A stretch of DNA of 63,428 nt, counting the filler, from Reclinomonas americana ATCC 50394 (taxonomy: Eukaryota), in assembly GCA_048213135.1 (NCBI GenBank). It is 11 parts of 11 records of this genome, joined end to end, with 100 filler letters (N's around TTAATTAATTAA, not from the genome) between each part and the next. Parts side by side here need not be neighbours in the genome. Positions count along the whole stretch, not along the records: positions 1 to 3,150 come from AFZH01019778.1; positions 3,251 to 18,320 come from AFZH01019779.1; positions 18,421 to 24,064 come from AFZH01019781.1; positions 24,165 to 27,598 come from AFZH01019782.1; positions 27,699 to 39,615 come from AFZH01019783.1; positions 39,716 to 41,839 come from AFZH01019784.1; positions 41,940 to 49,600 come from AFZH01019785.1; positions 49,701 to 53,690 come from AFZH01019787.1; 3 more parts are not named here. One strand, 5' to 3'. The position numbers and the translations under genes were made by a program. Below are positions 570-62,030 of this stretch, in pieces. Position 1 is the first letter of the stretch. Every line of letters starts with the position of its first letter. The notes under the pieces were generated by a model. The model had not been told where the DNA came from, did not search any database, and saw only the letters and a program-made list of their open reading frames with translations.

Positions 570-3106
570 ATGAGCGACTCTGATGAGGAGATGGAGTTTG
601 AGTTTGAGGAGGGCGAGGAGAGTGATGGTGTGTCTCACACAAAGAGAGAGAGAGTGTGTGTGTGTGCATAGTCACTCTCTGTGACAAGAGAGACACACAC
701 ACTCTCTCACATATGCAGAGAGACACTGTGTGTGCGTGCGAGTGTGCGAGGAGAGAGAGAGCACTCACACACATACACACACACAGAGACATGTGAAGTT
801 GTCACTCATGTGCGCGCGCTCTCTCTATACGTGCAACACAAGACACACACACACACACTCTCCCTCCTCTCTCTCTCTCTCTCCGCGTTATCACTCAAGA
901 TGCTCTCTCTCACTCTATTTGTGTGTCTCTCTCTCTCACTCACAGACAGCGAGCTCGTGTATGTTCCATCGTTCTCGCCGGATCACCAACGAATGGAGCC
1001 TGCGGGGCCGAGTCGCATGCGTGTGACCTATGATGGTGTGTGTGATTCCTCTTCTTCTTCTTGCATGTCATTTCATGTGCATTTCGTTCAATTCTCTTCA
1101 TGTGTCACAAGTGTTGAGAGCGGAGGATATCATCAAGGTGCAGGAGGCGGAGCTGCACAAGGTGCAGGATATCATGGCCATTCCCATGTCGTTGATCCGC
1201 GTGCTCTTTCGCAAGTATCAGTGGGACTCGGAGAGGCTGCTCAATCGGTGCGACGACACACAAGTGTGACGATCTCTCTCTTTCTTCTTCTCACACGCAT
1301 CCCATGCTGACGCTGTACGCCTGTCTTCTGCGCTTCTCTTGCCACTATTGGTGCATGGATTTGGCTGTTCTTCTATCGACTTTGTGTTGTACTCTCACTC
1401 TTTCTCACTCTCTCTTACTCACTCACTCTCTCTGCCTCACTCTCTCTTTCTCCCTTTCTCTTCGTCTCTCACACATCCCCTGTCGACTCTGCACGGCTCC
1501 CCTCTGCTCATACATTACAATCTTGCAGGTGCTTGCGTGACAAAGGCAATTTTCTCGCAAGCTTGCGACACACTTTCTACCTCTCTCGCCCTCACTCTCT
1601 CCCGCTGTCTCTTACTCTTCGTATAGTCTCTCTCTCTCTGTCGCATCGTTTGTTGACCCTGTATGGCTGCCTTCTGCTCTTGTCTCACCACCTTACCACT
1701 TTTCTTTGCATGGATTTGGCTGTTCTTTGTGCTGCACTCTCTCTCTCTCTCTCACACACACACACGCATCCCATGCCGACCCTGTACGTCTCTTGTCCTG
1801 CCACCTTGCTTCTTGCATGGATTTTGCTGTTCTCGAGAGTTTGAGACATGTTCTCTCGTTCCGCACATGCTCCCTTGGCTCTATGCTACTCTCTTTTCGA
1901 TGCGCGTCGTCTTTACCCCGTTTGCACGCCTGTGTGTCATCCTCTCATAGGTTGCCCTCCCCTCTATCCCTCTCCTTCTCACCCCTTCTCCCCCCTCCCT
2001 TCTCCCCCCTCCTTCTCCCCCTCCTTACCCCTTCTCCCCCCTCGCGCCTCAGCTACTACGACGCCGGTCGCGACAAGGTCTTCGAGGACGCCGGCCTCAG
2101 CCTGACCGCCGAAGAACTGGCGGCACTCGACTCGGCCGCCCAGCCGAAATCGACCTCGTCCACCGCTGGTGGTGAGTGCGCATGAACTGCTGCTTCGTTA
2201 CGGTGCAGTCGCTTATGGTAGTGATGTGCAGGCGCAGAAGCCGAGGTCCTTTGCGAAACGTGCTACGGCGACTACCCGCTGTCGGAGACGCTGTCGCCGG
2301 GCTCGTGCGGCCATCGTTTCTGCCTCGGCTGCTGGACCACATACGTGGAGATGAACATTCGCGAGGGCCAGAGTCGCAACCTGCACTGCATGGGTCACAA
2401 GTGCCGCACCGTACTCGACGAGGATGTGGTCATGAAGTGCGTGGCGTCCGGAGGGGGCTTTTTCTTGAAGGGGTGTGTGGGCTGACCGTCGTGAAACAGA
2501 GTCGTGCAGGATGTGGCCGTACGGCAGCGGTACTGGCAATCCATCAACGAGTCGTACGTGGAGGATGCGCCATTTGTGTGCTGGTGCCCGTCGGTGCCGT
2601 CGTGCGGCTGCGCAGTGCGTGTGTTTGGTCTCAGCGAGCCGAATTGGGACATCAAGTGTCGCTGCGGGTGTCGGTTCTGGTGAGCGCGATTGGGCGGCAA
2701 AGCTTTATCTCTCCCTTCCCTCCCTTCCCTCCCTTCCCTTCTCCCTCTCCCTCCCTCCCTCTCACCCTGTCCCCCTTTTCCTTTCTCCCTCTCTGCGCAG
2801 CTTCCGCTGCTCGGAACAAGTGCACTCGCCCGCCACCTGCGACATGATGCGCGCGTGGAAGAAAAAGTGCAAGGACGACTCGGAAACGTGCACGTGGATT
2901 CAGGCCAATACCAAGGTTTGTGTGGTTGAGATGTGTTCTCGTCGTGTTGTTGCCTCATCTCACATTGCGTGTCATTGCAGGACTGTCCCAAGTGCCACAA
3001 GCCCATTGGTTGCGTCTCCTGCCTCCCCCCCTCTCTCCCTCTCTCAACGCAGTGTGACTCACCTCTTGTGTTGCATCTTCGCAGAGAAGAACGGCGGCTG
3101 CCAGCG
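570..3106 (+). CDS. ARIH1: Ariadne-family RBR (RING1-IBR-RING2) E3 ubiquitin ligase, 3' partial, multi-exon
   Basis: Spliced translation: acidic N-terminus MSDSDEEMEFEFEEGEESD; UBA-like ..RVLFRKYQWDSERLL; RING1 [97 protein letters not shown]. GT-AG introns restore the frame. The contig ends at 3150. Confidence 0.93.
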
Positions 3107-3150
3107 TGAGTCTCTTTTGCGCTCAATCACCTGATCATGAGTACTGTTTT

Positions 3151-3250: not shown

Positions 3251-3674
3251 GCAGGGACAGACACGCGGAGTGCGGTACCGAGCGCCTCGTGCACCGCGCA
3301 CCGCCGCGCCAGCACAGCCAGCACAGCCAGCGCCACCGGCAGCCGGCGGTCGACTTCGTGAGTGCTCTGTTTCTTTGTTAGATCTTCCGCTCATGCTCTT
3401 GTCCTCATTGTCTCTCAATCAGCCGCCGATGAGGTGGCGATGCTCGAGGCCGCCCTTGGCGAGCGCATTGATTTCGGCGTGCAGGGAGTGTTGCGTTGCA
3501 CTCTCTTGTCTCCCTGCGATGCTGAAGTCTGACTCGTGCATCGTTAGATACGCAATGGAGATGGATCCGCCTGCGGGTGGCGCAGTAACTGGCGAAGAGG
3601 AGGAAGGCGGCGAGGACGAGGAGCCGGAGGACGAGGATGGTGATGAGGGGGAAGAGGAAGACGATGACATGTAA
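3251..3674 (+). CDS. 3' end of a gene with an acidic C-terminal tail (possibly the end of the Ariadne gene across the gap)
   Basis: Three exons join in frame via a GTGAGT intron and a GTTGCG intron (donor 3490): ..RLPADEVAMLEAALGERIDFGVQGVYAMEMDPP..EDEDGDEGEEEDDDM*. Confidence 0.6.
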
Positions 3675-7356: not shown

Positions 7357-10300
7357 ATGCGCTTTCTCTTCGCCGTCACACTCGTGCTCGTGCACTCATT
7401 CGCTGTCGATGCAAGTTGCGCGTTCACTTTGCATTTCTTCTGTGTTCCCGCACACACGCAACGCATCACGTCCTCACCCACTCTGCGCAACAGATGCTCA
7501 GACAGTGACCACCGCCGTCGCCACCAACATCACGGGCTCGTCGGTCACAGTGAATGCGTGGATCAATCCCAACAATGTTGCTGGTGGAACCACGAACTCG
7601 TTCGAGTGGTCACTCTATGCTGCCGCTCTGGGCGTTCCCAGTACCTCTGTCTCCACCATTGTGGGCACGGCAGGCACCTCGGGAACAACGGACGGTGTTG
7701 GAGCAAGCGCGTTGTTGAATACACCGATGGTTTGCTCAACAGTTGTCCCTGCTGTGTGCACTTCCGCTGACACACTGAGTGTGTGCAACTGCAATAGGGA
7801 CTGGCCTTTGATGCCATGGGCAACGTGTATGTGGGCGATTACGGGTTTGTTATGCGCACTCTTCCTGTTGTCTGTCGATTGTTGATTCGTGACTTCTCAC
7901 TCTCGTGCACACACGCGATGGTGACAGCAACTGTCGCATTCGACGCATCACACCAGCGGCCACAGTGGCCACCTTTGCTGGCAGCACATGCGGCCTGACG
8001 AATGCCACAGGAGTGTCAGCTAAGTTCAAAAAGTGCGCTCCTGTTCTTGCTCTCTCTCCTTCTTCCCTCTCCCGACTCACTGACACATTCTCACAGTGTT
8101 GCCGGCCTCGCCATCGATCAAACCACGGGAATCATGTATGTCGCCGATGTGAGTGTGTGCTGGCATGCATGCATGATCACGGATGATGCAATCTGTTGAC
8201 TATCTGTGTGCTGCTGTAGTTGATGAACCACGCCATTCGTGCCGTCACCCCAGGAGCAGTAGTCACCACGTTGGCGGGCAACGGGGCATCCGGGAGTGCC
8301 AATGCCACGGGTGCAGCAGCCTCGTTCAATCAGCCCGCTGGAGTGGCGGTGGATGCCACGAACCAGGTGGTGTATGTGGGCGACTGGCTCAACAACACCA
8401 TCCGGCGAGTGACGTATGCCGGTGCGGTGACGACCTTTTGTGGCTCCGCTGGCATGACAGGCACAGCCGATGGTGCGTGTGCGGGAGCGGCGCGATTCGG
8501 TGGTCCGAACGGCGTGCTTCTTGTTGGAACCACGCTGTATGTTGGTGAGCGCTGCGTGGGAACGAGAGAGATGCCCCTCCTTATTGCTCATCCTCCCCTC
8601 CTGCTTGGTGTGCATGATTGCAGCCGACCGCGTGAACAACTCCATCCGAGTCATTGACACGGTGGCGATGACAGTGACGACGTTGGCAGGATCAACGAGT
8701 GGCACATCAGGATCCACGGATGCCACCGGTGAGTCTATCATCATGGGCAACTCAGTGTGATCTGTTGACATTCGTGCTGATCGATGCACACCAGGAACGG
8801 CTGCTCGCTTCAACACACCCATTGGGCTGGCATACGACTCTGGAAACAACGTCATCTATGTTGCCGATGTTGAGCACTTTCCACACACTCTGAGCGTTTC
8901 GCTTCTTGATTCTCAATGCCTTGTGCTCGACGCAGTCCGTGAACAACACTGTGCGGCAACTCCGAGTGTCAGACTCGTCAGTGAGCACCATCGGCGGCGC
9001 GGCGGGCATGAGTGGCTCAGCCGACGGCAGCGCACTGACTGTCGCGCGCTTCAACTCCCCTGTCCACCTCGCCTTCGATGCATCGACGGCGTCCGTGCTG
9101 GTCGCCGATTTCAACACGCACATCATCCGTCGCCTCTCGCTGGCGTCGCAGACGGTGTCGGCCACACCCGCCACCGCCACCGGCTCCCTTGCCACCTCCA
9201 TCGCCGCCTCACTGACTGGCCTCGTGAGCAACTGGACGTACTACTATCGTGCCGTCGGCGTCACCTCCACACCCAGCACCATCAATGGCGTCACCGTGTC
9301 CTTCACCACCGCCACGAATGTGGCTCCGACCGATATTAGTTGCTCGTCGACGACATATGTGTCGCCGTCGGTGGCGAATCAAGTCGTGTGTGCGCTGCAG
9401 ACGACGGACGCGAATGCGGGCCAATCGTTCACGTACTCGATTGTCGGGGGCGCCAACAGCGCAGTGTTTTCGATCAGCGGACAGTCGCTGGTGATTGTGG
9501 CGGCGGGGCAGGCAGGCAGCTCGCTGGCGGTGACGATTCGGTCGACGGACAGTGGATCGCCGGCGCTGTTCTTCGACAAGGCGTTCACCATCACAGCAGG
9601 TGAGCCAATTTGTGCTGCATCGTCTCTGTCTCCTCGCTGTGCTCTTACTCCTTCCATTGTTCCTCTTCCTCCTTCTCCCTCTTGCTGGTCATTCACGGTG
9701 CTCTTCTTCCTTGTTAATGTGTCACAGCCACCCAGACGCTGGCCACGCTGACGGCCAGCAGTGTGACGCCATCGTCGGTGACACTGAATGCCGTGGTGGG
9801 CAACTCTATTGCGGCCTCGACCATGAGCAACTCATTCGAGTGGGCACCGATGACAGCTGCATTCGGTGTGACACCGGCGTTGTCGACGTGGTTGGGCACG
9901 GCAGGTATGTCCGGCTCGACGGATGGCACGGGTGCTGCTGCTCGATTCAACAAGGCGGCGGTAAGTTCCTCACCGCACGAACGTGTCACAACTTGCGCAT
10001 CTGCTTGACGCGTGTTCACACTATATCACAGAGCCTCGCGTTTGATGCTTCCGGCACTGCGTATGTGTGCGACCAACTGAACTACGTTGTTCGGCGAGTG
10101 ACGAGTGGAGGTGTGGTGGCGGCGTTTTTGGGAACAGCTGGCTCAATAGGCTTTGTCAATGGAATCGGCACTGCCGCACGGTTCTACCAGCCGACTGACA
10201 TATCGATCGACCAGACGACCGGCTACCTGTACATTGCTGATGTTGCGCGCTGCAGTTGGGCTGTCGACAACTGGGTGTTGTGGAGTGTGATCTTCTCACT

Positions 10301-13300
10301 AGCGCTCTTTTCCAGCAAGCAAATCACGCAATTCGTGTGAGTACCCCTTCCGGATCTGTGTCGACTCTGGCTGGCAACGGGTCTGTTGGCACTGCGAATG
10401 GCACCGGATCGACTGCGCGTTTTAATCGCCCACACGGCATTGTGGTCGATGCGGCGAACAAAGTGGTGTATGTTGGCGACTGGAATAACAGTGCTGTCAG
10501 GAAGGTGCGTGCACGCATCTATGATTGCGTCGCGTGGTGCCGATGCAAGTCTCTTATCGCATGCGTCGAAGGTCACCTATGGTGGCGAGGCCATCACCTA
10601 CTGCGGTACGATTGGCTCGTCGAGTACAGTTGATGGAGCTTGCGCATCCACAGCGCGGTTTGGTGGGCCAGTTGGCGTGACTTTGGATGCGACGGCCAAT
10701 CGGCTTTATGTCGGTGTGTGTGTATGCCCCGTGTCTGGTGTTCCTGATGACCTCGTGCCCACGCCTGTGCCATGAGCAGCCGATCGCTCCAGGAACAACA
10801 TTCGTGCAATCGACATGCTGGCGATGACAGTGTCGACGCTGGCTGGCTCGCTCACCGCGGCAACGGGGTCAACAGATGCCACTGGTACTGCGGCCCTGTT
10901 TAGCACACCGATTGGTATCCAGCTGGATCGAGCACGGGGCGTTCTCTACGTAACTGATGTTGCGCAGTGACGTGGTTGTGCTTGGAAGTCGCGTGCTTCG
11001 CGCAACTCAAACTTCTTCCGTTCCCAGTTCGCCAATCACACGATTCGCCAAGTCGCTGTCAGCACGGGCGCTGTCACAACCATCGCTGGTACTACGGGAG
11101 TGTCTGGATCAGCGGATGGGAGTCCACTCGGTGGTGCTCAATTGTACAGCCCGGTGCGCTCCACGTGAAATTGGCACGTTGCGAATAGATGACGAGTTAT
11201 CTCATTTGGGTGTGCAGCTTTTCATGACGTACGATGCCACGGCGTCCATCTTGTACATTGCAGGTGAGTGTCTGTGCAGCAGATCGTATCGACCCCATGC
11301 ACCTCCAATCTCAGCACTTCTGTTCCTCAGACTACTACAATCTCACCATCCGCCGTCTCTCCATCGGCACGAGTATTGTCTCGGCCACCCCGGCCACCTC
11401 GGCCGTCGCCTCTAGCACCATTTTGACCGCTTCACTGACGTCTCTCGCTGCCAACTGGACGTACTACTTTCGTGCCCTGTCCGCTTCAACCGTGCCCAGC
11501 ACTCTTACCGGCTCTACCGTGTCCTTCACCACCTCCAACGCGGTGCCGACCGACATTGTGTGCTCTGCGACCTATGTCGCACCGTCGACTGCCAACATGC
11601 CCGTGTGCACGATGAGCACAACGGACAGTGATGGGAGCCAGTCGTACACGTACATTATCACCGGCGGAGCGAACGGCAACGTATTCACCCTGGGTGGAGG
11701 AGGCGCGCAGTTGCAGATCACCTCGGCGGGCCAGTCGGGCAGTCCGCTGGCTGTCTCGATCCGCTCGTTTGACAATGGCACGCCGCCGATGTTCTTCGAC
11801 AAGTCGTTCACTGTGATATCGGGTGAGTGGATGGTTGATTGGGAGTGTTGCGTTTCTTGGTGTGGATGCTGACCTTGTCTTCCCACCAGTGAACAATGCA
11901 CCGACGGCGGTGACGCTGAGTGCAAGCTCATACATTCCGCCCAGTGCTGTGGGGCAGCCGATCGGCACGATGAGCACGAGCGATGTAGACTCGCAGCAGT
12001 CGTTCACGTATTTGGTGGTGGGAGGTGCCAGCAGCGCATTGGTGACGATTGTGTCGGGCAACCAGCTGCAGTTTACGACTGCGAGCGTGACAGCGTCGCT
12101 GGTGGTGATTGTGCGCACGACCGACAATGGCAATCCCGCCATGTCCTTCGATCAGACCCTGAACATTACGAGTTGCGTGCTGTTGTGATTGTCTCATGAT
12201 GTTGTGCTGCACAATGATGCTGATTGCCTTCCATACAGTCCCCACTGTGGCATCTATGTCGGCCACCTTTGTGCCGGCTCTGGCTGGTCAGTTGATAACA
12301 CTGACGGGAACCGCACTGGTGAATAATTCGGGCGACGCGTCGGCGTATGTGGTGGCCACTCCTCTGTGTGCCGCCACGACGCCGCCGACAGCTGTAGCCA
12401 GCGCTACAGTCAGCAGTGCCTTCGGCAGTGCGACCAGCATCACGCTGACAATTGACGCGGCGGGTGCTGCTGTCGGGACGTACGAACTGTGCACACGTTG
12501 GGCGCCAACCAAGACATATCTGGCCGTGTCAGCATTTGCCCTTGGTGAGAGAAGAGTATTCAGAGAAGCATTCTGGTTGTGTCCGTGTGTCAGCTGAACG
12601 AGGTGCGCAGGGAATGTGGCGCCGAGCGACATTCTGTTGTCGGGTCCGCAGACATACTCGAGTACGACAGTGCCATTCACTGTGGGCACACTGAGCATGG
12701 TGGATCTCAACACGGGACAGACGCCGACATTCAGCATTGCGGGCGGTGTGCACTCGGCTCTGTTCAGCGTCGTGGGCAGCAATCAGCTGACAATCTCGGT
12801 GGCTCCGCCACTGTATCGGCGACTGCAAGTGCTTGTGCAAGTGAGCGATGGCGCGCTGACGTACACCAAGCAGTTCATGATTGTGTATGGTGCGTGGGTG
12901 GGGAGGACGGGAGAAGAGTGGGGAAGAGAGTGCTGAAGTGTGATTGTCGTCGCCCTCTCTTCTCCTGCGAAGCTGCACGTCAATGGGCTTGAGTGATTGG
13001 TGCTTACGATCACTGGGTGCTTGTGCAGTTTGGGACGCAGGTTGTTTGGCGGTGCAGAATGGAGTGGTGGCTCGTTGCGTTGTTTGTCAGCCCAGGCGTG
13101 CACCATCTTTGTCCGTCTCACTGTTCGGCATGTCGAGCAGCCGCGTTGGAAGTGTGCCAGTTCGAGGCCGTGGATCGACCCGGCGGCTCGATCCTGGCTG
13201 TGATGCCTTCGGTAAGCGAGGTCGGATGCTGCGAACTGTGTGATCAATACCCGCAATGTCGATCGTGGACATTCTTGGACGCTGCTGCGGCGTCGAACTC

Positions 13301-13808: not shown

Positions 13809-14677
13809 TTACATTGTCTCCGTAACAACGGCGCCTGGCTTGTTCATGAGCATGCGGATGAGGTGCTCGATGGAGACGCTACCGGAGCCCTCTGGATCTG
13901 TTTGAAACAAGTCAGAAACCACATTCGCCAATCGATCAAAACTGGTGAAGAGAGCACCTGCGTCCAGCATGATGCAATTGAGCTCGTGCTCGGTGATACG
14001 TTCGCCTACGCGCTCCATGATTACGCGCAGTTCGCCGGCACCGATGCGTCCAGTGCCCTGCACGTGCCCGATCAGATCCTTCCTCGTGCTCTGTGCGCTT
14101 GATCGGCACTCACCTTGCGATCGAAAGTGACGAAAGCCTCCCTGATCTCGTCTTCTGGGGGGATGCGCTCCTTTGCCACCTTGTACATGATCTGCACAAA
14201 CTCCTCCCATTGCACCACACCGGCCCCAGTCTTGTCGGCCTCCTTGATCATCTCCGTCAGCTCCACATCCGTCGGATAGATGTCTGTGCCACCCGGCTCA
14301 GCTCACACACGCACAGCAGTCGCACTTCCCCCTCCTGTCGCACACGCAACTCATGTAGTTGAGCACATTCTCCAGCTCACGCGCCGAAATGGTGTTGGAG
14401 GCGTCGGCATCGAACATCACGAATGCCGCTCGGAACTGCCTGATCTCGTCCCTGGTGAGCAGCCCGTTGGCCACACCCGGCTGCCGCCACCCCCTCAACC
14501 ATCAGCGACACGCACGCGCAATGAGACCAACACTCCATCAAGACGCACCACTTTCAACAACTCTGGATCGTCTGACGCACTCTCCGCCGCCTGACTGCCG
14601 CTCCGCCGCATGCTCGACTTGAGCTGCCGCCTCTTGTACGCAGGGAGACGCGACAGCCCATTGCTGCTCGACGCCAT
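13809..14677 (-). CDS. Calmodulin/centrin-like 4-EF-hand protein with N-terminal extension
   Basis: Five exons: EIRQFRAAFVMFDADASNTISARELENVL..ELTEMIKEADKTGAGVVQWEEF..EDEIREAFVTFDRKGTGRIGAGELRVIMERVGERITEHEL..DPEGSGSVSIEHL. Confidence 0.9.
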
Positions 14678-14778: not shown

Positions 14779-17700
14779 ATGGCAGGCGCTCCGATGAAAG
14801 AGGCCACTGTGGTGGTCATTGATGTGGGCGACACCATGTGTGAGGCATTCAGCAGCGGCACTGCTCCACTGGACGATGCCAAGTCCGCAGTGTTGTCATT
14901 ACTGCAGGGAAAGGTCTCTCTCTCTCTTGCTTGTCTCTCCCTCTCCACACACACACACACACTGACTTTGCGAGAGCACAGCTGCTGCACAGCAAGAACG
15001 ACGAAGTCGGCATTGTGCTGGTGGGCACACGAGGTATGCCGCGAAAGTGCATGTTTTCTTGTGACTTGTCTCTTACTCTCCATCACAGACACACAGAACG
15101 CACTGTACGACCCGAGCAGCGAAGGCTACGAGCACATCACAGTGGTCACACCTGTGGCCAAAGTGCAGCTCGACATGATGCACATGGTGGAGAGCACAAC
15201 GCGCGGGTATCAAGAGGGCGATGGTCTGTGTAAGAGAGAGACAACAAGCAGACAAGTGCATCAGTGCTGTGACACGCTCTCTCTCCACGCACAGTGGTTG
15301 ATGCGGTTCTTGTGGGCATGGACCTCATCCAGCGGCGCTGTGAGAACAAGCGGTATCGGAAGCGTATTTTGGTGGTCACTGCCGGAGGTGTGGAGATCAA
15401 GGATCCGTCGCAGCTCGCCACCATTGCTCACGGGTTGAAGACGAATGGCATTGAGTTGCAAGTGCTGTTGCGTTTTTGTCGTTCTCAAGCCGCTTGTCCG
15501 TGTGCGCGCGCTCATGCATGCGCAGTGGTGTCAAGTTCCCGCCAGTGTCGGCGGACGATGACGATGACGATGATGATGGTGGCGATGTGCGCATGGCTGG
15601 TGGCACGCAGCCACAGCGTCTGCTCATGCGCCTCGTCAAGCTCAGCGACGGCTCCTTTTATCCCATCAACGATGCGCTCACCATGCTCAAGGGTTTCCGT
15701 TCCAAGGTTCGGGTTTTGCACGTAGCACTGCTCCTCCTCCTCCTCTTCCTTGCCTGACACGAGATGGTGGCGGTCGCACAGAGTGTGCTGCAGCGATCCA
15801 CGTGCCGCACCACACTCGATCTGGGCGACGTGCAGATTCCTGTTGCGTGGCCACGCTCCCTTCGTCGTCAAGGTGGAGATGCAGGCGCTCACCACCGATT
15901 CGCAGGTGTGGGCCTTCACCAAGTCCACCGAGTCGAAATTCCCCACACCTCGCAAGGTCTACATTGACAAGCAGGGCCACGTGTCGCACATTGCAATGCA
16001 GTCGACGTACGTGGATGTGGAGGACCCGGAGAAGGAGGTCAGCGAGGAGGATCTGGTGCGAGCGTATCGCTACGGTTCCGATGTCGTTGCGTATTGGGGC
16101 AGAAGGAGGAATCAGGCGGAGTCGTTGGCGTTTTCCCTCACCGCTTGGTGGCGACTGCAGATCCCCATTGACAAGGTGGCCGAGGGCAGCATCAAATACG
16201 GCGCCAGCAAGTGCCTGAAAGTGCTGGCATTTGTGCAAGAAAGCGAAGTGCCTCGTTGCGTTGTCTTCTACGTGTCGTTGTACCACTTCCGCGGCTCACC
16301 TTTCTGACAGGCCACCATCTAATGTCACACGCGGCGTGCTTTGTGTCGTGGCCTGGTGACGATGTGGCCAGTCGTTGCGTCCATCCTCCCATCAGTTGTC
16401 CGTCGTTTCACAGAAGCTCATTTTTTCGTGCAGGCGCGCTCTCCGCTCTGGTGCGTGCAATGGCGGAGCTGAAGGTGTGGGCCATCTCGCGCTACGTGTA
16501 CCAGGAGAACCGCGAGCCCAAGATCGGCTTCCTCATGCCGAGTTGCGTCCCCTTCACCCTGCACACATCACACCACTCGCTTGTTCTCATCTCGCGCAGA
16601 GGTCAAGCACGACATGGATGTGCTGTACTGGGTGCAGATGCCGTTCCTCGAGGACGATCGGTGAGCATCGCTGCAAATCTGTTGCTGCGAGACGCACACA
16701 CCGCTCACATCAATTCCGGGGAGCGCAGGCACTTCCAGTTTGGGTCATTTGCGGAGGTGGCGGTGACGCCACACCAGCAGAGTGTGATGGGCGATTTGGT
16801 GCGATGCATGGATCTGACGGCCGACGACATTCGCGACGATGAAGGGTGCGTGAGGAGTGATCAGGATTTGAGTGTGTTGAATTCAGCGACTAATCGAGTG
16901 TCGGAGTCAACAGCGAGCCCGTGGAATACCTGAAACCCTCCGAAACCTACAATCCCGGCCTGCAACACTTTTACCAATGCCTGACGCATCGCGCCATGAA
17001 CCCCAAGGACAAGCACTTGCCACCTCGCGATCCAGCAATCGACAGGTTTTCCGCATCGATGTTGATTGGTTTGTGAGCGCCCGTACCTCACGCCGCCGCT
17101 TCCAGATATCTGCTGCCGGAGCAATCGGTGGACAGCGCACTCGGCGATTTCCTTGCACAGGCAGCCGGTAGCATTGAGATTGCACGGCAAGCGTTTCCGA
17201 CCAAGCCCGGTTCGCGTCACAACACCTTCCCTTCCTTCCTCCCTCCTTCCCTGTCGCCCTTGTCTCCACCATTTTCGCCGCCCTTCTTTCCTCCCTCCCA
17301 CCATCCCTTCGTCCATCCCTCCATCCCTTCATCCCTTCGTCCTTCCCTCTCGCTCACTTTCCTCCATTTTCTCTCTCCCTCCATTCCTTCCTCCCTCCCC
17401 CCTTCTTCTCCCTCCCTCTCGCTCTCTTTCCTCCATTTTCTCTCCTCTCCTTTCTTCCCTTTACTTCCCTCCCTCCCTTCCTCCTTGCCCTTTACTTCCC
17501 TCCCTCCCTTACCTCCCTTCTTCCCTTTCCTCCACCTTTCCCATTCTGACCATTGACGCGCAGGCGACCTGGCGGCCGCCAAGGCCAAGGTCAAGGTGTT
17601 TGGTGGCGACGCCGAGTTGCCGACCATGGACAGCTACGGCGCCTCCGGATCGGGTGCCCACGACGGCGCATCGGTGGCCTCGAGTGCCGTCGGCAACATG

Positions 17701-18320
17701 CCAGCCGACATTGCCGCCATCTTCACCACGCGGCCGACCACTGTCAGCTCGGCCAATCCCGTCAAGGACTACTGGACGATGGTGCACGATCAGACCACGG
17801 ATCTTGTGCCAGTCGCCAATCGCGAAATGGTCAACGTCATTCACAAGCTCATTCGCGACTCGATCGGCGACCAGTACTACAACAAGGTGCGGCCTGGAAA
17901 TGTTGTCGATCGGTGTGATTGTTGTTACGCCTCACCGCCCGCGATGCAGATTGTCGACTGCCTGGTCAACTTCCGCACCGGCTGCATTCAGGTGAACGAG
18001 CCACAAGAATACAACAACCTCATGCTGGCGCTGCGCGATGCACACGGAAGACCGGGTGCGCGACGTGAGGACCTGTGGGAGCGCATCGTGCAGCACGATC
18101 ATGGCAAGCTGACGCTCATCACACACGTTGCGTCTGCCGAGTTGTCCCTTTCCCCGTTTTTCCTTTGCGCTCAATTTATGGTGACCCGCAGAGCGAGCAA
18201 CCGGACTCGGATGTGGGCGACGCACAGGCGGCCAGCTTCTTCTCCCAGGCGGTGCCGGCGGCCGCCGCACCTGCTCCCATGCAGCAAGATGCTGGACCGG
18301 GTGTGGGCGACGATTTGCTC
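14779..18320 (+). CDS. XRCC5: Ku80 (NHEJ DNA end-binding subunit), last codons lost in the gap
   Basis: vWA start KEATVVVIDVGDTM..DEVGIVLVGT; core RAYRYGSDVIP..KCLKVLAFV..ALSALVRAMAEL..AISRYVY..VQMPFLEDDRHFQF..NPGLQHFYQCLTHRA; C-terminal domain NPVKDYW..YYNKIVDCLVNFRTGCI..KLTLIT; tail GVGDDLL. Confidence 0.95.
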
Positions 18321-18420: not shown

Positions 18421-21400
18421 CTGATGCAGATGCATTGCAAGGTGCGTCATCTGTGGAGGCAGTCGCCGGCTCTGCGTCATCGGCATCGTCTGCGGGCTCG
18501 GAGGCGGCAGCCGCGGCGGCTGTCGAGGCTGAGAAGCTGGTCAGTCAAGTGTGCGGGTGTTTCCTGTGTGTGTCTTTGTTGGTAACGAGTGGTGTGTAGG
18601 CGAATCCGCATTCGATTGCGCCGAGCCCGCGCATGGGTGCACGCAATGCGCAGGTGGAGCGCGAGTATGTGCATTTGCAGCAACTGGACCCGACCACGCC
18701 GATTGTTGCGCGTGTGTTTCTCACTATGCGTGGCTGTTGCGGTGCTCATCCTCTGTGTGTGTGTGTGAGATAGCCGGTTCGTATGCCGAGCGAGGAGGGC
18801 GATCGGATGATGGAGTGGCAGGAGAAGTCGTCGCCGGGTAAGCTGGTCGACGATCAGTACACGGATGAGTACAAGGTGTGTTTGCGATAACTGTGATTGT
18901 CGGTATTGTGTGTGTGTGTGTTGTTGCTGATGTGCGTGGCACACATAGTGGGAGAGCGTGCGACAGCTGTCGCTGATGGTGGATGCGTTTCCCGGCATGT
19001 TTTCGGCCACAGATTGGGACAGTGATGATGCAGTGCGGCAGGTGTGCATCCACCGCTCGCTCTCCTTTCCTGCCACGTTTGCGCATCTCTGATTCCCGCT
19101 CCCCGTCACAGATGCTGCGCTTCACGCGCGACATGCTGGCCGAGATCAATGGCGTCTTTGTGCGTCCGTTCGAGCGCGCGACACCGCCCGTCTCGGAGTT
19201 GTTTTTGCGCATCTACAATCTCATGAAGGTCTCCAACATTGTGGATGCCATTGTGGCGAAGACCCTGTGGCAGGACGGTGTGCCCGACTTGCAGGCTCTC
19301 GGCTGCGAGCTGCTGTTCTATCTGTTGCCTGGTCCGCGAGTCAGCACCGTGGCGCTCGACGACGACATGCACCCGACCAAGTGCTTCTTCAAGTACGCGT
19401 TTGTCAACACACCAGATACACAGGAGGACCGACTGACCAAGCTGATTGGTCTCATTCTGTCCAAGACGTACGAAGTTCGCGCGTGGGTGAGTGTGTCGAA
19501 GAATGATCTCCCATTGTGCTGGTACAGCAAGTAATCATCCTTCTTTGATGCGTCAGGCCGTGCTGGCCGTGGGCGCACTCTCACGGCATCACGCCGAGTT
19601 CCGGCTGGCGGCGCTGGAGAGGCAGGCGGCTGTCATCATTATCTCGTTGCTGGAGGACATGATTGCCGATCATGACTTGATGTTGCAGCAGCTGTCGTTG
19701 TTGCGTCGTGTGTTTTGGACGGTATCAATCTTTTCCGTGGACCCCTCGGCGCTGCCGAATGGACGTGCAGTTGCGTGCATGACTGTCGCGTAGGTCTGCA
19801 GAGGTGCAGGCACTCATCACTCTGTTTGTCGACAGGTGTTTGAGGCACTGATTTACTTCTTGGATGCGGTCGCCGATCCGGTGGTGCACCAGAACGTGCT
19901 GACCGGTCTCGGCTGCCTGCTGCCGGTGGAGCCGAGCATGGATGTGGTGCTGAAAGTCATTGGATTCCTCACGTGAGTTCTCTTTCTCTGATGTCGGCGT
20001 GATCTGTGCTGAGCGCCGGTTGCCGCACAGACACCAAGATCTCGCCGTGGCCATTGAGGCGCTCAAGGCACTGCAATTGGTGATCAAGAGCGGACAGTTC
20101 CTGGTACGTCGTGTGCTGTCTCCATTGCATGTGCTTGCGTGTATGTGTGCCAACCGCACTGCTGCAGCCAACACCCGAGGTCATGGTCACGTTCATCACC
20201 AACCTCGGCTCGTTGCTGGGGCGCAAGGAGATGGCGCTGCAAGTGGAGAGCTCGCAAACGTTGGTGTTGTTGTCGGAGAGCCACGAGTTTGTCAGGGTTA
20301 GTACCCGCGACTGTGTGTTCATTTGGTGGCTCTTCTCACTCACTTGCTTTGCAACGCACACACAGTGTATGATCCAGCAGTTCGTTCCACAGTCGCTGGT
20401 GTTGCTGTTGCCGGATCCAAGCAGGAGAGCTCTTGCAGCCAATCTCTCTCGTGTGCTGCGTGCATGCATGCAAGCCACCACCGAGGAAGTCGTTGCGTCG
20501 CGTGTTGCATGCTTTCTGTGTGTGCCGCCTGGCTGAAACAATCAACCACACCAGGCATCCTTCGCCGACGAGAACATGGTGAACACGCTGATTGCACTGA
20601 CGGAGCGGTGGCGCGACACGAACCGTGCACAGGAGTACGTGTACAACCTGGTGCTCATTCGCAACATTCTCATGTCGTTGGAGATGCTGCTCAGCCTCGA
20701 CACGTGTGGTGCGTCTGCCTCTTCTCGTCGTTGCTTGCATCCTGTCTCCTTGTGCTCATCCGCCACGCCAGTGCCACTGCATGCTCTGTCGGCCGCCAGC
20801 ATGCACTCAGAGGTGGGAGTTCTGCGCTCGTCGGTCGCATCGGCGGCCGCCAGTGCACCCTTGCACGCAGTGTTTGAGCCGTCGCGTTTCTTCCACGCTC
20901 ATCACGTGGAGAAACTGCTGGTGCTGTGGTTGAACATCAAGCACTCGCCCAGCGACGGTGCCTTCCAACTGTATTTGTGAGTCAGTTGTGCTTGCATGTT
21001 GGAATGGGAGGAGGAAGTGACTGACGGCGCGCTCGTGACCGTAGCAACGAATTCAAGCATCGCCTGCAAAATCTCCTCCGCCGACTCCACCAACTGCGGG
21101 CGACGCAAGCCAGCGAGGATGATAGCATTCCGCCGGTGAGTGAACGGCATTCTGACAGTGGAAGGGGATGCGTGCAGCAAGCGTGCTGAGCTGCCTCCTT
21201 TTTTTTTGCAGCTGTTGACTTCCATTTCCCACATCCTGGTCGACTTCTTCCCCGCCTCGCGCGACGGCAGCAGTGGATTGATTTCGGATCCCACCGACAA
21301 CCGAATGATTCACTGCAAGGTGGAGGTGCTGAAGGAGGAAGAGTTCCACTCGCGCAGGAGGCCATTTGGTTAGTGGCGCTTCTTCCTGCTGATCTCGATG

Positions 21401-53878: not shown

Positions 53879-53924
<46 letters not shown>

Positions 53925-56181: not shown

Positions 56182-58001
56182 TCAGCAGTGGTGGAGCGGT
56201 GCGGGCAGTGGAACGGCTTCGGCGCCGACTGCCCGCAACGCCTGCATAAAGAGGGGGGAGCGGGACTTGGCCAGCGCGCCGGTGCGGTTTCGTCGCGGCT
56301 GTTGGTGGTGTGCGGATGCCGCCGCGGCGGCGGCGTGCAGATGTTGTTGCTTGCGTGCTGCTATTGCCGTTGTAGCCACCGGTGGCGACGGCGACTTGCG
56401 TGCCGTGCGCGTCGCCGTTGGCATGGCGCGCGTCGTGGTCATGTCCTCGGCCGACGACACGCTCACCGGCAGCATGAGCATCTTCGAGTCGAGGATGCGC
56501 TGCTGGGCCTCGAGGGCCGCCGGAATGTCGAGGAACAATTGCACCTCGCGGTCACTGGTGGCCAGCAGGCACATGCTGCCGTCGTTGGTCCACGCACCCG
56601 ACGTGATAATGCCGGCGTGCAGACGCGGCATCTCCGCCTGCAGCGCCTTGTCCGAGTCGATAATGTGCGCCGACTTGCCGCCGCCGACCAAAAAGTGACC
56701 GGACGGAGTCGGGCGCCATGCCACAAAGGTGGAGTCGGCCGGCGCCTCCCAGTACTCGACCATCTTCTTGCGCGCAATGTTCCACACACAGACGCGGGCG
56801 TCCGAGGCCAGCGTGGCCAGTCGGCTGCCGTCGTGGCAAAACGCGGCGCTAATGACTTGAATGTGGTGCTCGTCGGCGCCAATGGCCGTGTGCTGCAGCC
56901 GTTGCATCACCGTGTGCGTGAATTTCGGCGACAGTGTGAGGTGGTGCACGCAGGCGGTGCCGTCCATTGACGCGGTGACGAGGCGGGAGCCGTCGGGCGA
57001 GAACGCCAGGTCGTTGATGGCGGCCGAGTGCGGGCAGCACGAGAACAGCAGGCGGTTGTGGCCCACGAGTGAGGCACGCGGACCCCACACCATCAGCTGA
57101 CCGCGCTCGTCGGCCGACGCCAGCACAGTGTTGGACACTTGGACTTTCGAGGCCTTGGCGCACAGAACCTGTATTCAGGAAAGGGAGGGGCGTGTGTTAG
57201 AGGAGGAGAGGGACGGGAGAATAAGGAGGGCATGTACCTTGCAGTTGTGACCCTCCAGAACAAACACGCAGTGGCCATCCGAGCAGTCCCACACACTGTG
57301 GTTGTCGCCGAGGTGAGAATGATGAGTGAGAAAAGATGCTTTTGCCTCTGTGCACTCACCGCACAGTGCCATCGTTGGAGGTGGAGCAGAGGAACCGACC
57401 ATCGGGCTGGAAGAACGACACCGAGTTGATGACCGCCTCGTGGCCCTCCAAGGTGAGGCTCTCGCAGCCGTCGGCGGGCGCGAACTCGTGACCGACTTGC
57501 GGCACATTGGAGACAAACGACGACGAGTCGCGACTGGCCAGCATCTCGCGCGAGTACCAGATGCGCACGCAGCAGTCCATGGAACCAGTGGCCAGCACCG
57601 ACGAGTCCGCCGGATGCGCGTCAATGGTGGTGATGGGACCGCGATGACCCTTGAACACACCCTGCACAGCACAACAGCGCAGCGAGTCAGACTGCAGGTT
57701 CTGTGTCGTCTCTTGCTTGCCTGTCTCGACACGCAACAATGAGCTCGAGTGGAGACTGGCGCTCGACCACCGCACCGGGATCGGTCGGCGACATGACCGA
57801 CAGTGGGGTGGTGGCGCCGGCAGAGGAACCACTGCTGCAGCCCTCCTCGTCGCTGCACGGGGTCGACGAGCTATGACTGCGCCACAGTTCCTTGGCTCGC
57901 GGCGACGCCACAGGCGAGTGCTCGGGCGTCGAAGTTGCAGAGCATCCGCACGAGCACAAACTGGCGGAGAAGCTCGACGGCGACGGTGGATTGCTGCTCA
58001 T
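56182..58001 (-). CDS. WD40-repeat protein (divergent repeats, Ser-rich N-terminus); 3' end uncertain
   Basis: FKGHRGPITTIDAHP..LATGSMDCCVRIW; LEGHEAVINSVSF..STSNDGTVRVWD; HSAAINDLAFSPDGSRLVTASMD. Confidence 0.85.
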
Positions 58002-58244: not shown

Positions 58245-61200
58245 ATTCGCCGACAGCCCGATATTCGTCGGCGCCACATTGCCTACAACACACGGCAGAG
58301 TCAGCTGACTGCATCGTGATTCACAAACACAAGCTGCGGCACGCACTCTCGTTGAACGTCAGTGTCTTGCTCACGCTGCCGCCGTGTCCGTCGTCCGACG
58401 TGATCGTCACTTGCAGACCGTTGCCAGACAGGCCGCCACCACCCACATTCGCCACCAGTTGAGAGCCACTCACACTGAACTTGCCGCTGTCGGCACCGCC
58501 GCTGATCGTGTACGTCGGCGTCTGGCAGCAGTTGGCATCCACCGTCGACAGCGTGCAAATCACACTTCCCAGTGTGGCCGGCGGCACATATGTAGTCGAG
58601 CTGCAGTTGATGTTGGTCGGCGCAACGTTGGCTGCGCGACAGCGAGTCAGTTGGTTGTGTGTCCAACAGGCAGCAGCACGACTCCCTTTCTATTTCTCTC
58701 TTCCTCTCCCTTACCTTCATCAATCACAAAAGTCCGATCAAACGTCTGACTCGTGCTATCCGTCACTCGCACCGTCACCGTCAGGCTATTGCCTGTCTGG
58801 CCGGCGTTGCGCAGCACCAGATTGTTGCCGCCTGCAATGTTGAACAGCGCGGCATTGGCGCCGCCTTGCACACTGAACGTGAACGTGTCGCCCGCATTGG
58901 GATCCACGCCACTCAGCACACCCACGACTGTGTTCGCTGCCGCCGTCGGTGGCACGTACGTCACCGACGTGATCAAGATATTGGTGGGTGGTTGAGGCGC
59001 TGTGTGCGTGCGCATGCACGTAGAGTGTCAGGCAATGCAGAAGGCAACTCAGACAAAAGGGAGGACGCAACTGTCGGTGATGGTGAATGTTTTCTCGAAG
59101 AACAGCGCTCCGGTGCCGTCGTCTGTGGTTCGCACCCGCACCTGCAAGCCACCACCGACCTGTCCGTTGGCTGTGATGCGCAACTGATTGCCAGAGATGT
59201 TGAAGAGAGCGGCGTTGACGCCGCCGGTGATGGTGTAGGTGAACGACTGGCAGCAGTTGACATCGGTGGTGGACAGTGTGCCGATAAGAGTGTTGGCCAT
59301 TGTCGTTGGCGGGCTGTACGATGTCGCAGACAGTGACAAGTTGCTCGGAGCCACATTCGCTGCATCACGTCAGATAACGTGAGTCTACCCTCCACAGCAC
59401 GTTGACCCCAGTCGTGTGCATGGCACTCACCTTCGCTAATGGTGAATGATTTGGAGAACTGTCCGCCATTCTGGTCGTCAGTTTGAATCGTCACCGAGTA
59501 CGAGTTACCGGTAAGGCCGCTGACATTGCTCAGCAACTGATTGCCGGAGATGGCAAACTTGGCTTGATCCGCGCCACCGACAATCGTGTACACTGGTGAC
59601 TGGCAGCAATTGGCATCCGTCGTCGAGAGCGTGCCGATCACTCCATTGAGTGCGAGTGGCGGAGTGTACAGAGTGCTCGACAGCGAGATGTCAGTGGGGA
59701 CGACGTTGACTGCGTGCGTTGCGAAGGCCATGTGAGCGAAAGCGACTGGTTCGATGAGAGGAAGTGCAGCACACTTACCTTCGTTAATGGTCACGGTTTT
59801 GTTCACGAACAGCGACCCGGTGCCGTTGTCAGTCGAACGAATGATGACAACGAGTCCAGTCCCCGTCTGCCCGGCGGCGGTGATGCGCAGCTGATTGCCA
59901 GAGATGTTGAACAAGGCTGCCGATGCTCCACCTTGAATGCTGTACGTGAACGACTGGCAGCAGTTCGCGTCGACTGTGCTCAGCGTTGCCACGACAATGT
60001 TGGCCCCCGCAGTCGGTGGCACGTATGTCGAGCTCGACAGCACAACGTCCGTCGGCGCCAGATTTGCTGCGTCGCGCACACACAAAGTCAGTGAGAGCAT
60101 ACAAGCCCCGCTGCACACACCATCAAGACGCACCCTCGTCGATCGTGAACGACTTGTCCACAAAGAGTCCACCGGCACCACTGTCGGTCGACCGCACCGT
60201 GACGACCAGCCCGTTGCCGGACTGACCTACGTTGGTGATGCGCAGACTGCTCCCTGAGATGTTGAACAGAGCAGCGTTCGCGCCCCCCACGATGGAGTAC
60301 GTGAACGTCTGACAGCAGTTGCCGTCGGTGGTAGACAGAGTTCCCACGACGCTGTTGGCGGCGGCCGGCACCGAGTACAATGTGCTCGACAGTGCAATGT
60401 TGGTCGGCGCAAGATTGACTGCGGTGTTGGGACGGGGATGAACATAGCTGCAGAGCACAATAACACACTCTGGCGAAGATACCTTCGCTGATCGTCAGCG
60501 TCTTGCTAAACGTGCCGCCGTTCTGATCGTCGGTGGTGATCTGCACTTGCAAGCCGTCACCTGTCAGCCCCGCAATGTTCGAACGCAGCTGCGCGCCAGA
60601 CAAGTTGAACTTGGCAGCGTCAGCGCCACCACTGATTGTGTACACAAATGTCTGGCAGCAGTTGCCGTCGGTGGTGGTCAGCGAGCCAATTACTCCATTG
60701 AGAGCAAGTGGTGGCGTATACACGGCCGACGACAGCACAATGTCGGTCGGCGCGAGATTCGCTGTTTTTTTCAGTGAGGAATGAGCGCAAGGCAGAGTGT
60801 ACAAGGTGACAGCAATGCGTCTCACCTTCGTTAATTGTAAACGTCACGCTGACAAACAGAGAACCGCTGCCGCTGTCCGTTGAACGGATCGTCACCTGCA
60901 GTCCAGTTCCGGTCTGGCCGCTGCTTGTAAACCGCAGCTGCGAGCCCGAGATGTTGAACAGGGCTGCATTTGCTCCGCCGACAATCGTGTAGGTGTACGT
61001 CTGACAGCAATTAGCATCGGTAGTCGACAGTGTGCCAATCACTGCATTGGCGCCAATCGACGGCGGTGAGTACGAAGTGCTTGACAGCGAGATGTTAGTC
61101 GGCGCCAAGTTGGCTGCAGTCGGATGTAGGCGTGAGAAAAGGAATACTGGAGTTATGAGGGATTGCACGCTCTATAAGCTGCCGCGCAACTCTCGCTGAC

Positions 61201-62030
61201 TGTAAACGTCACGTCGACAAACAAGGAGCCTGTGCCACTGTCGGTCGACCGCACAATCACCACGTATCCGTTGCCAGTGAGACCCGCGCTGGTGATGCGC
61301 AGTTGCGCGCCCGAGATGTTGAACAGGGCAGCATTGGCGCCACCCACAATCGTGTACGTGAATGTCTGAGCAGAATTCGCATCGGTGGTCGACAACGTGC
61401 CGACCACCACGTTCGCCGTCGATGGTGGGGTGTACGTGGTGGCCGACAGCGCAATGTTGGTCGGTGCCACATTGACTGCAACCGCTGGTCAGACATAGAC
61501 GAGTATGTGCGACACAGAAAACACACGATAGACACAACTCTCGTTGATGGTGAACGACTTGTCGAAGAAAAGCGAGCCTGTGCCACTGTCGGTAGACCGC
61601 ACGGTCACCACGAGGCCAGTGCCGTTTTGTCCTGCTGTTGTGATGCGCAGTTGGCTGCCCGAGATGTTGAACATGGCTGCATTGGCACCACCCACAATCG
61701 TGTATGTGAAGGTCTGCGCCGAATTCGCATCGGTGGTCGATAGTGTGCCAATGACCATGTTCGCGGTGGTCGGCGGAGTATACGTGGTGGCCGACAACGC
61801 GATATCGGTCGGCGCCACGTTATCTACGACATTGCGCAATCAGCCAAGCATGGCACAGAAGCACCATCGCTCACAGCCACGCGGCCCGCAACTCTCATTG
61901 ATGGTGAACGACTTGTCGAAGAAGAGCGAGCCCGTGCCACTGTCGGTAGACCGCACGGTCACCACCAAGCCAGTGCCGTTTGTCCCTGCCTGTTGTGACT
62001 TGGCGCAGTTGGCGTCGCCCGAGATTGTTA
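58245..62030 (-). CDS. Giant cadherin-like repeat protein, internal fragment; at least 11 domains, one per exon
   Basis: ~90-95-aa exons NxAPT(D/N)IxLSxTxYxPP..GTLSTTDAN(CC/SA)QTFTYTIVGGANAALFNISGxQLRIT..VRSTDSGxGxLFxDKxFTIxE separated by phase-1 GT-AG introns. Confidence 0.9.

Follow-up and report, generated by a model that had tools for sequence, protein, structure and literature searches.

A candidate second class of 5' splice sites, GTTGCG(T), at exons ending in a base other than G in Reclinomonas americana

How is the start of an intron recognised when the exon before it does not end in G? This question is raised by a 63,428-nucleotide (nt) stretch of DNA from Reclinomonas americana ATCC 50394 (assembly GCA_048213135.1), henceforth referred to as the window, within which all results below, donor statistics included, were obtained. 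The window is nuclear DNA of an intron-rich eukaryote, with a G+C content of ~56% overall and of 75-83% at the third codon positions of confident exons. An initial annotation had proposed that many of its introns begin with GTTGCG, each such donor being a normal one with one extra T, that this form is used where the last exon base (position -1) is not G, and that it is read by U1 small nuclear RNA (snRNA) in a shifted or bulged register. On the evidence of sequence, reading frame and homology, GTTGCG(T) sites are genuine donors of short U2-type GT-AG introns and form a second 5' splice-site class at exons ending in a base other than G. As to how they might be recognised, we tentatively favour, at a probability of roughly 40%, a single pairing register that would serve both donor classes.

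Results

GTTGCG is the commonest predicted donor hexamer

Introns were predicted with a purpose-written dynamic-programming gene finder that scores codon log-odds, the AG acceptor, the branch motif and intron length and that, to avoid circular reasoning, allows any GT as a donor (the donor-agnostic model). The gene finder over-predicts, giving 226 introns in its first pass, and the commonest donor hexamer among its predictions was GTTGCG, found at 15 of 226 introns in the first pass and at 13 of 126 in the second. GTTGCG accounts for 71 of the 8099 GT sites in the window (0.9%); its enrichment among predicted donors is about tenfold, with binomial p values of 2e-9 and 1e-10 in the two passes. 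The 71 copies, counted on both strands, compare with 50.3 ± 6.8 in 100 shuffles, none of which reached 71. A refined model took its donor table from positions +3 to +7 of the intron alone and left exon bases out of the score; 25 of its 135 predicted donors read GTTGCG.

The predicted introns of 45-130 nt (n = 102, median length 66-67 nt) carry branch motifs such as CTCAC, CTGAC and CTCAT ~16 nt upstream of a CAG acceptor. We divided their refined donors into a T-class (GTTGNG, n = 28), a canonical class (GTRNG, n = 42) and others (n = 32); no single donor is near-universal, and no GTTA donor occurs among the predicted donors. Two simpler counts point the same way. In a branch-anchored k-mer count, too loose a test to be decisive, 38 of the 71 GTTGCG copies were followed by a branch+AG module at a distance of 15-120 nt; this proportion (0.54 vs 0.33 overall) exceeds that of all others among the 40 commonest GT hexamers. 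A strict local test, which asks for 20 open codons on each side and so drops many short-exon introns, left 115 GT sites at threshold 2, and GTTGCG came first among them with 16. Eleven copies lie within predicted sense exons, which indicates that the hexamer alone is insufficient as a donor.

The initial annotation had listed 27 GTTGCG donors. All 27 positions carry the hexamer on the strand given, and 25 of them are preceded by a base other than G, as it had claimed, G being found only at 3009 and 21608. As donors, 23 of the 27 are supported: 20 are contained in the refined gene models, and for 15842, 16374 and 22263 a local test found acceptors that keep the frame and are accompanied by a branch motif. 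The remaining four, at 10959 (+), 13074 (+), 6839 (-) and 30716 (-), found no support under the thresholds used. Six of the seven other T-inserted donors on its list are in the refined models, a GTTTCGT at 25420 being the one without support, and five T-type donors have to be added, at 18705 (+), 19770 (+), 23474 (-), 33553 (-) and 34281 (-), the last reading GTTGTGT. A T-class call at 61302 (+) is antisense to a well-supported repeat gene and is probably a false model. The introns with T-type donors are as follows (exon bases before the slash).

3009..3084 (+): T-class, g/GTTGCGT, 76 nt; RBR/Ariadne-like gene; refined model
3490..3547 (+): T-class, t/GTTGCGT, 58 nt; refined model
7415..7493 (+): T-class, a/GTTGCGC, 79 nt; NHL/TIG/PAN surface-protein gene; refined model
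8869..8935 (+): T-inserted, t/GTTGAGC, 67 nt; refined model
10242..10315 (+): T-class, t/GTTGCGC, 74 nt; refined model
12172..12238 (+): T-class, a/GTTGCGT, 67 nt; donor-agnostic model and TIG profile start
14284..14350 (-): T-class, a/GTTGCGT, 67 nt; calmodulin-like EF-hand gene
15467..15525 (+): T-class, t/GTTGCGT, 59 nt; Ku80; in-frame alternative GT at 15455, 12 nt upstream
15842..15905 (+): T-class, t/GTTGCGT, 64 nt; Ku80; supported by local frame and branch motif only, outside the gene models
16086..16160 (+): T-class, c/GTTGCGT, 75 nt; Ku80; human Ku80 alignment
16255..16310 (+): T-class, c/GTTGCGT, 56 nt; Ku80; precedes 63-nt mini-exon 16311-16373
16374..16433 (+): T-class, c/GTTGCGT, 60 nt; Ku80; local frame test
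16542..16599 (+): T-class, a/GTTGCGT, 58 nt; Ku80; donor-agnostic and refined models
18127..18191 (+): T-class, c/GTTGCGT, 65 nt; Ku80, C-terminal part; donor-agnostic and refined models
18705..18773 (+): T-class, t/GTTGCGC, 69 nt; added here; donor-agnostic model
19770..19835 (+): T-class, a/GTTGCGT, 66 nt; added here; donor-agnostic model
20492..20554 (+): T-class, c/GTTGCGT, 63 nt; refined model
21608..21671 (+): T-class, g/GTTGCGT, 64 nt; one of two with G at -1
22263..22337 (+): T-class, t/GTTGCGA, 75 nt; EF-hand gene; in-frame alternative GT at 22257, 6 nt upstream
22465..22540 (+): t/GTTTCGT, 76 nt; between two EF-hand exons
23408..23474 (-): T-class, t/GTTGCGT, 67 nt; added here
24667..24740 (+): T-class, c/GTTGCGT, 74 nt
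31461..31532 (+): T-inserted, a/GTTGAGC, 72 nt; PALP/DsdA-like gene
32124..32182 (+): T-inserted, a/GTTGGGT, 59 nt
32839..32905 (+): T-class, a/GTTGCGT, 67 nt; donor-agnostic model
33498..33553 (-): T-class, t/GTTGCGA, 56 nt; added here
34215..34281 (-): T-inserted, a/GTTGTGT, 67 nt; added here
36192..36251 (-): a/GTTTCGT, 60 nt
38273..38499 (-): T-class, t/GTTGCGT, 227 nt; DNAJC21/zuotin-like gene; Pfam ZHD continuity
57662..57737 (-): T-class, t/GTTGCGT, 76 nt
59000..59071 (-): T-class, GACA/GTTGCGT, 72 nt; repeat gene
61114..61190 (-): T-class, GAGA/GTTGCGC, 77 nt; repeat gene
61476..61538 (-): T-inserted, GAGA/GTTGTGT, 63 nt; repeat gene
61824..61892 (-): T-class, GAGA/GTTGCGG, 69 nt; repeat gene, homologous phase-1 junction

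The last exon base separates the two donor classes

In the donor-agnostic set, G stands at -1 in none of 15 T-class donors but in 27 of the 35 canonical ones (Fisher p 2e-7). The refined set has -1 G in 2 of 28 T-class and 33 of 42 canonical donors (p 3e-9), and the background before non-donor exonic GT is 27% G. Ordinary donors here do mostly follow G, as had been proposed, and the link of +3 T and +6 G to a non-G base at -1, which the initial annotation had named as a check, holds within the window. The split emerged although the donor model never scored exon bases. Counted from the exon side, the 49 donors after G comprise 33 canonical, 2 T-class and 14 other sites, and the 53 donors after another base comprise 9 canonical, 26 T-class and 18 other sites. 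The same division is found among phase-1 introns, where -1 G occurs in 19 of 19 canonical donors vs 1 of 15 T-class donors (A 12, T 2, G 1), and among donors with a GCG core, of which 2 have the T and 11 lack it after G, vs 21 with and 4 without it after a non-G base (p 7e-5). The few canonical donors with a non-G base at -1 are either GTGAGTGT-type sites, whose complementarity to standard U1 is extended (-8 to -9 kcal/mol), or weak sites of the GTGCG type (-2.7 to -4.1 kcal/mol), and their mean predicted pairing energy with standard U1 is -5.66 kcal/mol, vs -8.23 kcal/mol for canonical donors with -1 G.

In length, branch motif, branch distance and acceptor the introns of the two classes resemble each other. 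Their median lengths are 67 nt (T-class) and 66 nt (canonical; Mann-Whitney p 0.63), the branch motif CT[CGA]A[CT] is present in 21 of 28 and 31 of 42 introns, the branch A lies a median of 17 and 16 nt from the 3' splice site, and the acceptor is CAG in 24 of 28 and 40 of 42, respectively. These sequence features support the view that T-class introns are ordinary short U2-type introns processed by the same machinery as canonical ones. A U12-type identity was rejected: the donors read GTTGCG and not RTATCCTT, and the branch motifs match the major class, not TCCTTRAC.

The donors themselves differ by more than a single T. T-class donors have U at +3, lack the usual +5 G and have G at +6 by definition of the class; they are close to a fixed heptamer, with +5 being C in 23, A in 2, T in 2 and G in 1 of the 28 and +7 being T in 19 and C in 7. 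At the corresponding core position, +4, canonical donors are more degenerate (A 22, C 15, T 4, G 1; n = 42), so that C is found in 23 of 28 vs 15 of 42 (p 2e-4). The proposed equivalence of each T form with a normal donor carrying one extra T is therefore approximate only, since 82% of T forms have a GCG core, whereas canonical donors divide into 36% with a GCG core and 52% with a GAG core. When both classes are aligned on the GCGT core they fall into one 9-mer, M-A-G-[G/U]-U-G-M-G-U, in which the cut comes after the third base if the fourth is G (AG/GUGMGU) and after the second if it is U (A/GUUGCGU), that is, one base apart. The flanking positions follow this alignment: positions -1 and -2 of the T-class behave like canonical -2 and -3 (A, C), and +7/+8 have the composition of canonical +6/+7. 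Accordingly placed, A is found at -1 in 14 of 28 T-class donors (background 17.6%, p 9e-5), or in 10 of 24 if four donors of the repeat gene are excluded (p 0.005), and the exon ends in CA in 7 of 28 (background 6.8%, p 0.002).

Homology fixes several junctions

The translation of 15726-16304, read without splicing, matches human Ku80 among solved structures in two pieces, of which one ends at chain residue 316 and the other begins at 317. The pieces abut without a gap once query residues 121-145 (25 amino acids, aa) are removed, which is exactly nt 16086-16160. In the DNAJC21/zuotin-like gene, the Pfam ZHD (zuotin homology) profile is matched at positions 2-56 before the 38499 intron and at 64-103 after it, with 7 residues standing for the 7 missing positions, and the exon after the 12172 intron begins exactly at position 1 of the Pfam TIG profile. 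The two introns that the initial annotation had placed on either side of a 63-nt Ku80 mini-exon at 16311-16373 (donors 16255 and 16374) are in frame. The dynamic-programming model instead fuses them into one 179-nt intron, and a PDB search with 16172-16930 gave only a weak Ku80 match (E 0.4), so that alignment does not resolve the mini-exon.

These junctions also bear on where the intron begins. If the exon included GTT and the intron began with GCGT, the sites would be GC-AG donors; such introns occur in most eukaryotes (0.9% in human; PMC4856993), and the 3-nt shift of the junction would keep the frame. However, GTT is invariant in all three intron phases (8, 15 and 5 donors), the forms GTTGAG, GTTGGG and GTTGTG contain no GC, and the GT reading fits human Ku80, the ZHD profile and the linker length of the repeat exons, to each of which the GC reading would add one residue. 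We give this reading almost no credence and rejected it on account of the extra residues and the non-GC forms.

Three pairs of in-frame tandem GTs were observed, at 15455/15467 (+, 12 nt apart), 22257/22263 (+, 6 nt) and 59773-59778 (-, 6 nt), and the donor-agnostic model took the non-consensus member of all three. Such pairs could offer a choice of donor and thereby a gain or loss of 2-4 residues.

Donor class changes with the last exon base in a repeat gene

A gene on the minus strand offers a comparison of junctions that share an ancestry.

58343-62610 (-): repeat gene, ~11 tandem ~94-aa repeats, one per exon, all junctions phase 1

Its exons are all multiples of 3 and its introns measure 63-83 nt. 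The repeats follow the pattern ...NxAPTDIxLSSTxYxPP...TTDANCCQxFTYxIxGGANAALFNISG..., and no Pfam family was matched at E<0.01. Four junctions at which the exon ends in GAGA or GACA use GTTGCG or GTTGTG, and six at which it ends in GAAG or GAGG use GTGAG, GTAAG or GTGCG; at repeat 7 the model passed over an obvious GAAG/GTAAGT and chose a GT six bases further downstream. At repeat 11 the likely donor, GAGA/GTGCGTG, is an exception to the -1 rule. Because T-type and canonical donors thus share one ancestral intron position, the donor class is read here as having changed in step with the -1 base in a single lineage of introns, which is direct sequence evidence of compensatory evolution between exon and intron. 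One further junction of this gene, 60419-60482 (-), has the donor GAAG/GTATCTTCG, which lacks +5 G and looks like the beginning of a U12-type donor, although its 64-nt intron shows no TCCTTRAC-like branch site.

The repeat gene speaks to the origin of the class as well. T-class introns could be a historical signature, left by a burst of mobile introner elements with a GTTGCGT end that inserted after non-G bases, and their strict 5' end and seemingly biased insertion context would agree with such an origin. Against this, the introns of the repeat gene have no detectable similarity to one another, only one pair among the 102 short introns is similar at E<1e-3 and that pair is canonical, T-class lengths and branch motifs are those of other introns, and both donor types occupy the same ancestral position. 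We consider an introner origin very improbable and rejected it, on the lack of similarity among T-class introns and the switch of class within one lineage.

It is also quite improbable, in our view, that the gene models are wrong, in the sense that many GTTGCG sites are bypassed for nearby canonical donors or not spliced at all and the pattern is a by-product of frame-restoring logic. The junctions are predicted, the home-made gene finder over-predicts, four listed sites found no support, copies of the hexamer occur in predicted exons and in-frame alternative GTs lie near donors such as 15467 and 22263, all of which speak for faulty models. Yet the -1 split is near absolute even though exon bases did not enter the donor model, the junctions at 16086 and 38499 and four in the repeat gene are fixed by homology, and the roughly tenfold enrichment was obtained with the donor-agnostic predictions.

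Pairing of the two classes with U1

To compare the classes, donors from -4 to +10 were folded against the standard 11-nt U1 5' end (taken from PMC4856993) with the register left free, so that shifted and bulged pairing was allowed. No snRNA gene was found in the window with Rfam at gathering thresholds, and at E<=1 the only matches were three weak microRNA-like ones due to chance.

The reading that we favour, at the roughly 40% given above, is that one U1-type RNA would bind both donor classes in one register, in which the intron G+1 of a T-class site would stand in for the -1 G that the exon lacks. Cleavage would be positioned separately, at the first GU, by later steps of the spliceosome, as in the human shifted register; shifted and bulged registers between 5' splice sites and U1 are established in human, where the U1 site and the cut can be set separately (PMC4856993). 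The recognising RNA or proteins would not be standard: G or C might, for example, replace the two pseudouridines of U1, or U1C or Luc7-type proteins might provide the aid. A non-standard recogniser is suggested because pairing of the T-class with standard U1 is predicted to be negligible and because G at +4 and C at +5 are strict.

Several results weigh against this reading. With standard U1 the mean duplex energy of T-class donors is -1.68 kcal/mol, compared with -2.93 for 600 random GT sites and -7.68 for canonical donors. In 12 of the 28 T-class donors the -1 base is T or C, so that shifting gains no pair with the exon, and by base-pair count a shifted N/GUUGCGU would be no better than a canonical N/GUGCGU; pairing alone therefore does not explain the T form at non-G sites. 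None of the single 11-mer variants of the U1 end that we tried discriminates well for both classes. Paralogous repeat junctions are among the sites counted, as is at least one model that is probably false (61302 (+)), and every junction was derived from sequence, frame and homology.

What then remains of shifted or bulged recognition, as initially proposed, is partial. The one-base offset is favoured over the bulge, because the exon-end A/CA preference fits the offset and because in a bulged duplex the -1 base still faces the G-pairing base of U1; to this extent the sequences partly support a shifted register. The fold does find this register for sites of the CA/GUUGCGU type, at a value of only about -2.5 kcal/mol, and the T-class favours G at +4 and C at +5, where standard U1 would favour A at both. 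A version of the single-register model with strictly standard U1, as initially put forward, would make up the smaller part of the figure given above and is distinctly unlikely.

In the bulged alternative, U1 would pair with G+1 and U+2, one U of +2/+3 would bulge, and GCGU would pair as canonical +3 to +6. Such a register, bulge +2/+3, is known in human (68 predicted 5' splice sites, 54 after curation, PMC4856993 Table 3; 51 are predicted for the bulge +3 register), and the 3' half of the T-class matches the composition of canonical +3 to +7. But -1 would still face C9 of U1, so that G should help, and yet the T form is found at 26 of 53 donors after non-G and at 2 of 49 after G. The bulge does not predict the exon-end A/CA preference, and the energy of the T-class with standard U1 is negligible in any register. 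We regard a bulge as improbable.

A different solution, possible though rather unlikely, would be that one major spliceosome reads two parallel 5' splice-site codes, G/GTRMGT and a strict N/GTTGCGT, the latter through a dedicated U1 variant or a changed U1 5' end; the last exon base would decide between them, and paralogous introns would switch when that base mutates. In its form with two U1 snRNAs, which we hold to be unlikely but a serious contender, the standard one would serve G/GTRMGT, and a second U1 or U1-like RNA with a 5' end of about ...ACGCAAC(U)... would read GUUGCGU in its own canonical register; sites without -1 G would bind standard U1 poorly and would persist only as the strict heptamer. 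Such a pair of RNAs would account for a T-class that is nearly fixed (+5 C in 23 of 28, +7 T or C in 26 of 28) beside a degenerate canonical +4, and for T-class pairing with standard U1 that is worse than that of random GT sites. The preference for A at -1 and C at -2 would fit if U and G came next in the variant RNA. A complementary 11-mer gives -11.1 kcal/mol with the T-class and -4.65 with random GT sites, a trivial result for a complement. Among the U1 ends tried, this perfect complement helps the T-class only, whereas a G/C variant helps both classes slightly. Precedents exist, as changed U1 has been described in Entamoeba and Mastigamoeba and both standard and modified U1 in Physarum (bioRxiv 10.1101/2022.06.08.495308). 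On the other hand, we found no precedent for a U1 pairing site one base longer beside a standard one, and if the -1 base were irrelevant to the second RNA, G should be near the 27% background and not at 2 of 28 (p 0.01). The latter objection is weakened by entropy, since many canonical sequences compete at sites with -1 G, which can partly explain the deficit. In addition, Thecamonas and Micromonas prefer +4 C with standard U1 only, according to the same source.

Across these readings, the suggestion of variant U1 or U6 snRNAs carries in our judgement more weight than shifted pairing on standard U1, because the energy predicted for that pairing is negligible. We put a non-standard or second U1 on a par with shifted pairing to the standard one. 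We infer that either a U1 with a non-standard 5' end, or a second U1, or proteins or U6 carrying much of the recognition would be at work. Both m6A in U6 (METTL16) and SNRNP27K are reported to be linked to preferences among 5' splice sites (PMC10581693).

Other features of the window

The window consists of draft contigs chained by ten identical 100-nt blocks, each made of 44 N, TTAATTAATTAA and 44 N, which act as six-frame-stop linkers; pieces that lie side by side need not adjoin in the genome. Because of this chaining, gene models beside the following blocks are unreliable.

3151-3250: linker block
18321-18420: linker block
24065-24164: linker block
27599-27698: linker block
39616-39715: linker block
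41840-41939: linker block
49601-49700: linker block
53691-53790: linker block
58145-58244: linker block
62031-62130: linker block

Low-complexity tracts (long CT/GA, CA/TG and trinucleotide runs) occupy 3700-5400, 27000-30000, 34900-38400 and 52300-56000, where they cause strong strand skew as well as spurious open reading frames that run for hundreds of codons. Three further genes were observed.

7357-13794 (+): large predicted surface-protein gene, ~23 exons, signal-peptide-like start; NHL repeats, units resembling the repeats of the 58343-62610 gene, one TIG domain and two PAN domains
39978-41189 (+): nearly intron-less 7-bladed WD40 gene
50167-51490 (+): membrane-protein gene with a DUF6691 / sulphur-transport (YeeE/YedE-like) domain, E 1e-31

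The best matches of the WD40 gene are mostly metagenomic or bacterial-type WD40 proteins at no more than 61% identity, with no named close eukaryotic relative among the matches listed. The family of the membrane-protein gene is mostly bacterial, yet short introns interrupt this gene.

Discussion

If the pattern in the window is true, a noncanonical 5' splice-site register would be a routine, rule-governed mode for about a quarter of introns, compared with the 3119 of 201,541 human 5' splice sites (1.5%) that make up all validated noncanonical registers there (PMC4856993). It would provide a natural system for asking how the cleavage site is set where U1 pairing and the GU do not coincide, and would reveal whether the U1 5' end is able to diversify inside a single genome. 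For annotation, a single donor matrix with +5 G would mis-model about one intron in four here, and hence nearly every multi-intron gene.

Among the titles listed by a literature search on motif strings, none concerns a GTTGCG splice donor; judged by title, those publications have the strings as primers or as unrelated sequence. Nor did the literature consulted describe two classes of donor that are divided according to the last base of the exon, and the literature found on shifted and bulged registers concerns human only.

The canonical donors of the window have close parallels. GTGCGT-type donors, strong CTSAC-type branch motifs and short introns are shared with Mamiellales (GYGCGY donors) and Thecamonas (+4 C, standard U1), as described in bioRxiv 10.1101/2022.06.08.495308; unlike in those lineages, for which the sections of that preprint consulted mention neither feature, a T-inserted class and a -1-dependent switch are found here. 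A strict atypical donor with +3 U or a GC-rich core is reminiscent of the Archamoebae, in which U1 has changed to match: in Entamoeba the U1 site ACAAAC matches a GUUUGU donor (88-90% GUUUGU; GUUUGUU in its longer form), and in Mastigamoeba a changed U1 pairing site, ACGUAC, goes with the donor GUGCGC (same source). Unlike Entamoeba, R. americana would have two donor classes in one genome, split by the last exon base. The published figures for Mastigamoeba are a G+C content of 60.7%, 3.4 introns per gene and a mean intron length of 137 bp, compared with ~56% G+C and a median short-intron length of about 66 nt in the window.

With the human bulge +2/+3 and +3 registers (Roca et al. 2012, cited in Tan et al. 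2016, PMC4856993) the T-class shares an extra U after GU and a downstream half moved by one; unlike those registers, for which -1 G is predicted to be helpful, it nearly excludes -1 G. A further parallel is with the human shifted (+1) register (Roca and Krainer 2009, as summarised in PMC4856993 and PMC9311317), in which +3 is U, +5 is not G and G/U are found at +6/+7, the pairs are displaced by one so that intron G+1 lies opposite the U1 base for -1 G, and the cut stays at GU. The T-class departs from it in preferring GCG to AAG and in its negligible predicted pairing with standard U1, with which an oligonucleotide tested for the human shifted register pairs at -6.8 kcal/mol (PMC4856993). Also unlike the human register, the T-class comprises 28 of 102 short introns, contains the commonest donor hexamer and depends on the -1 base in the manner of a switch.

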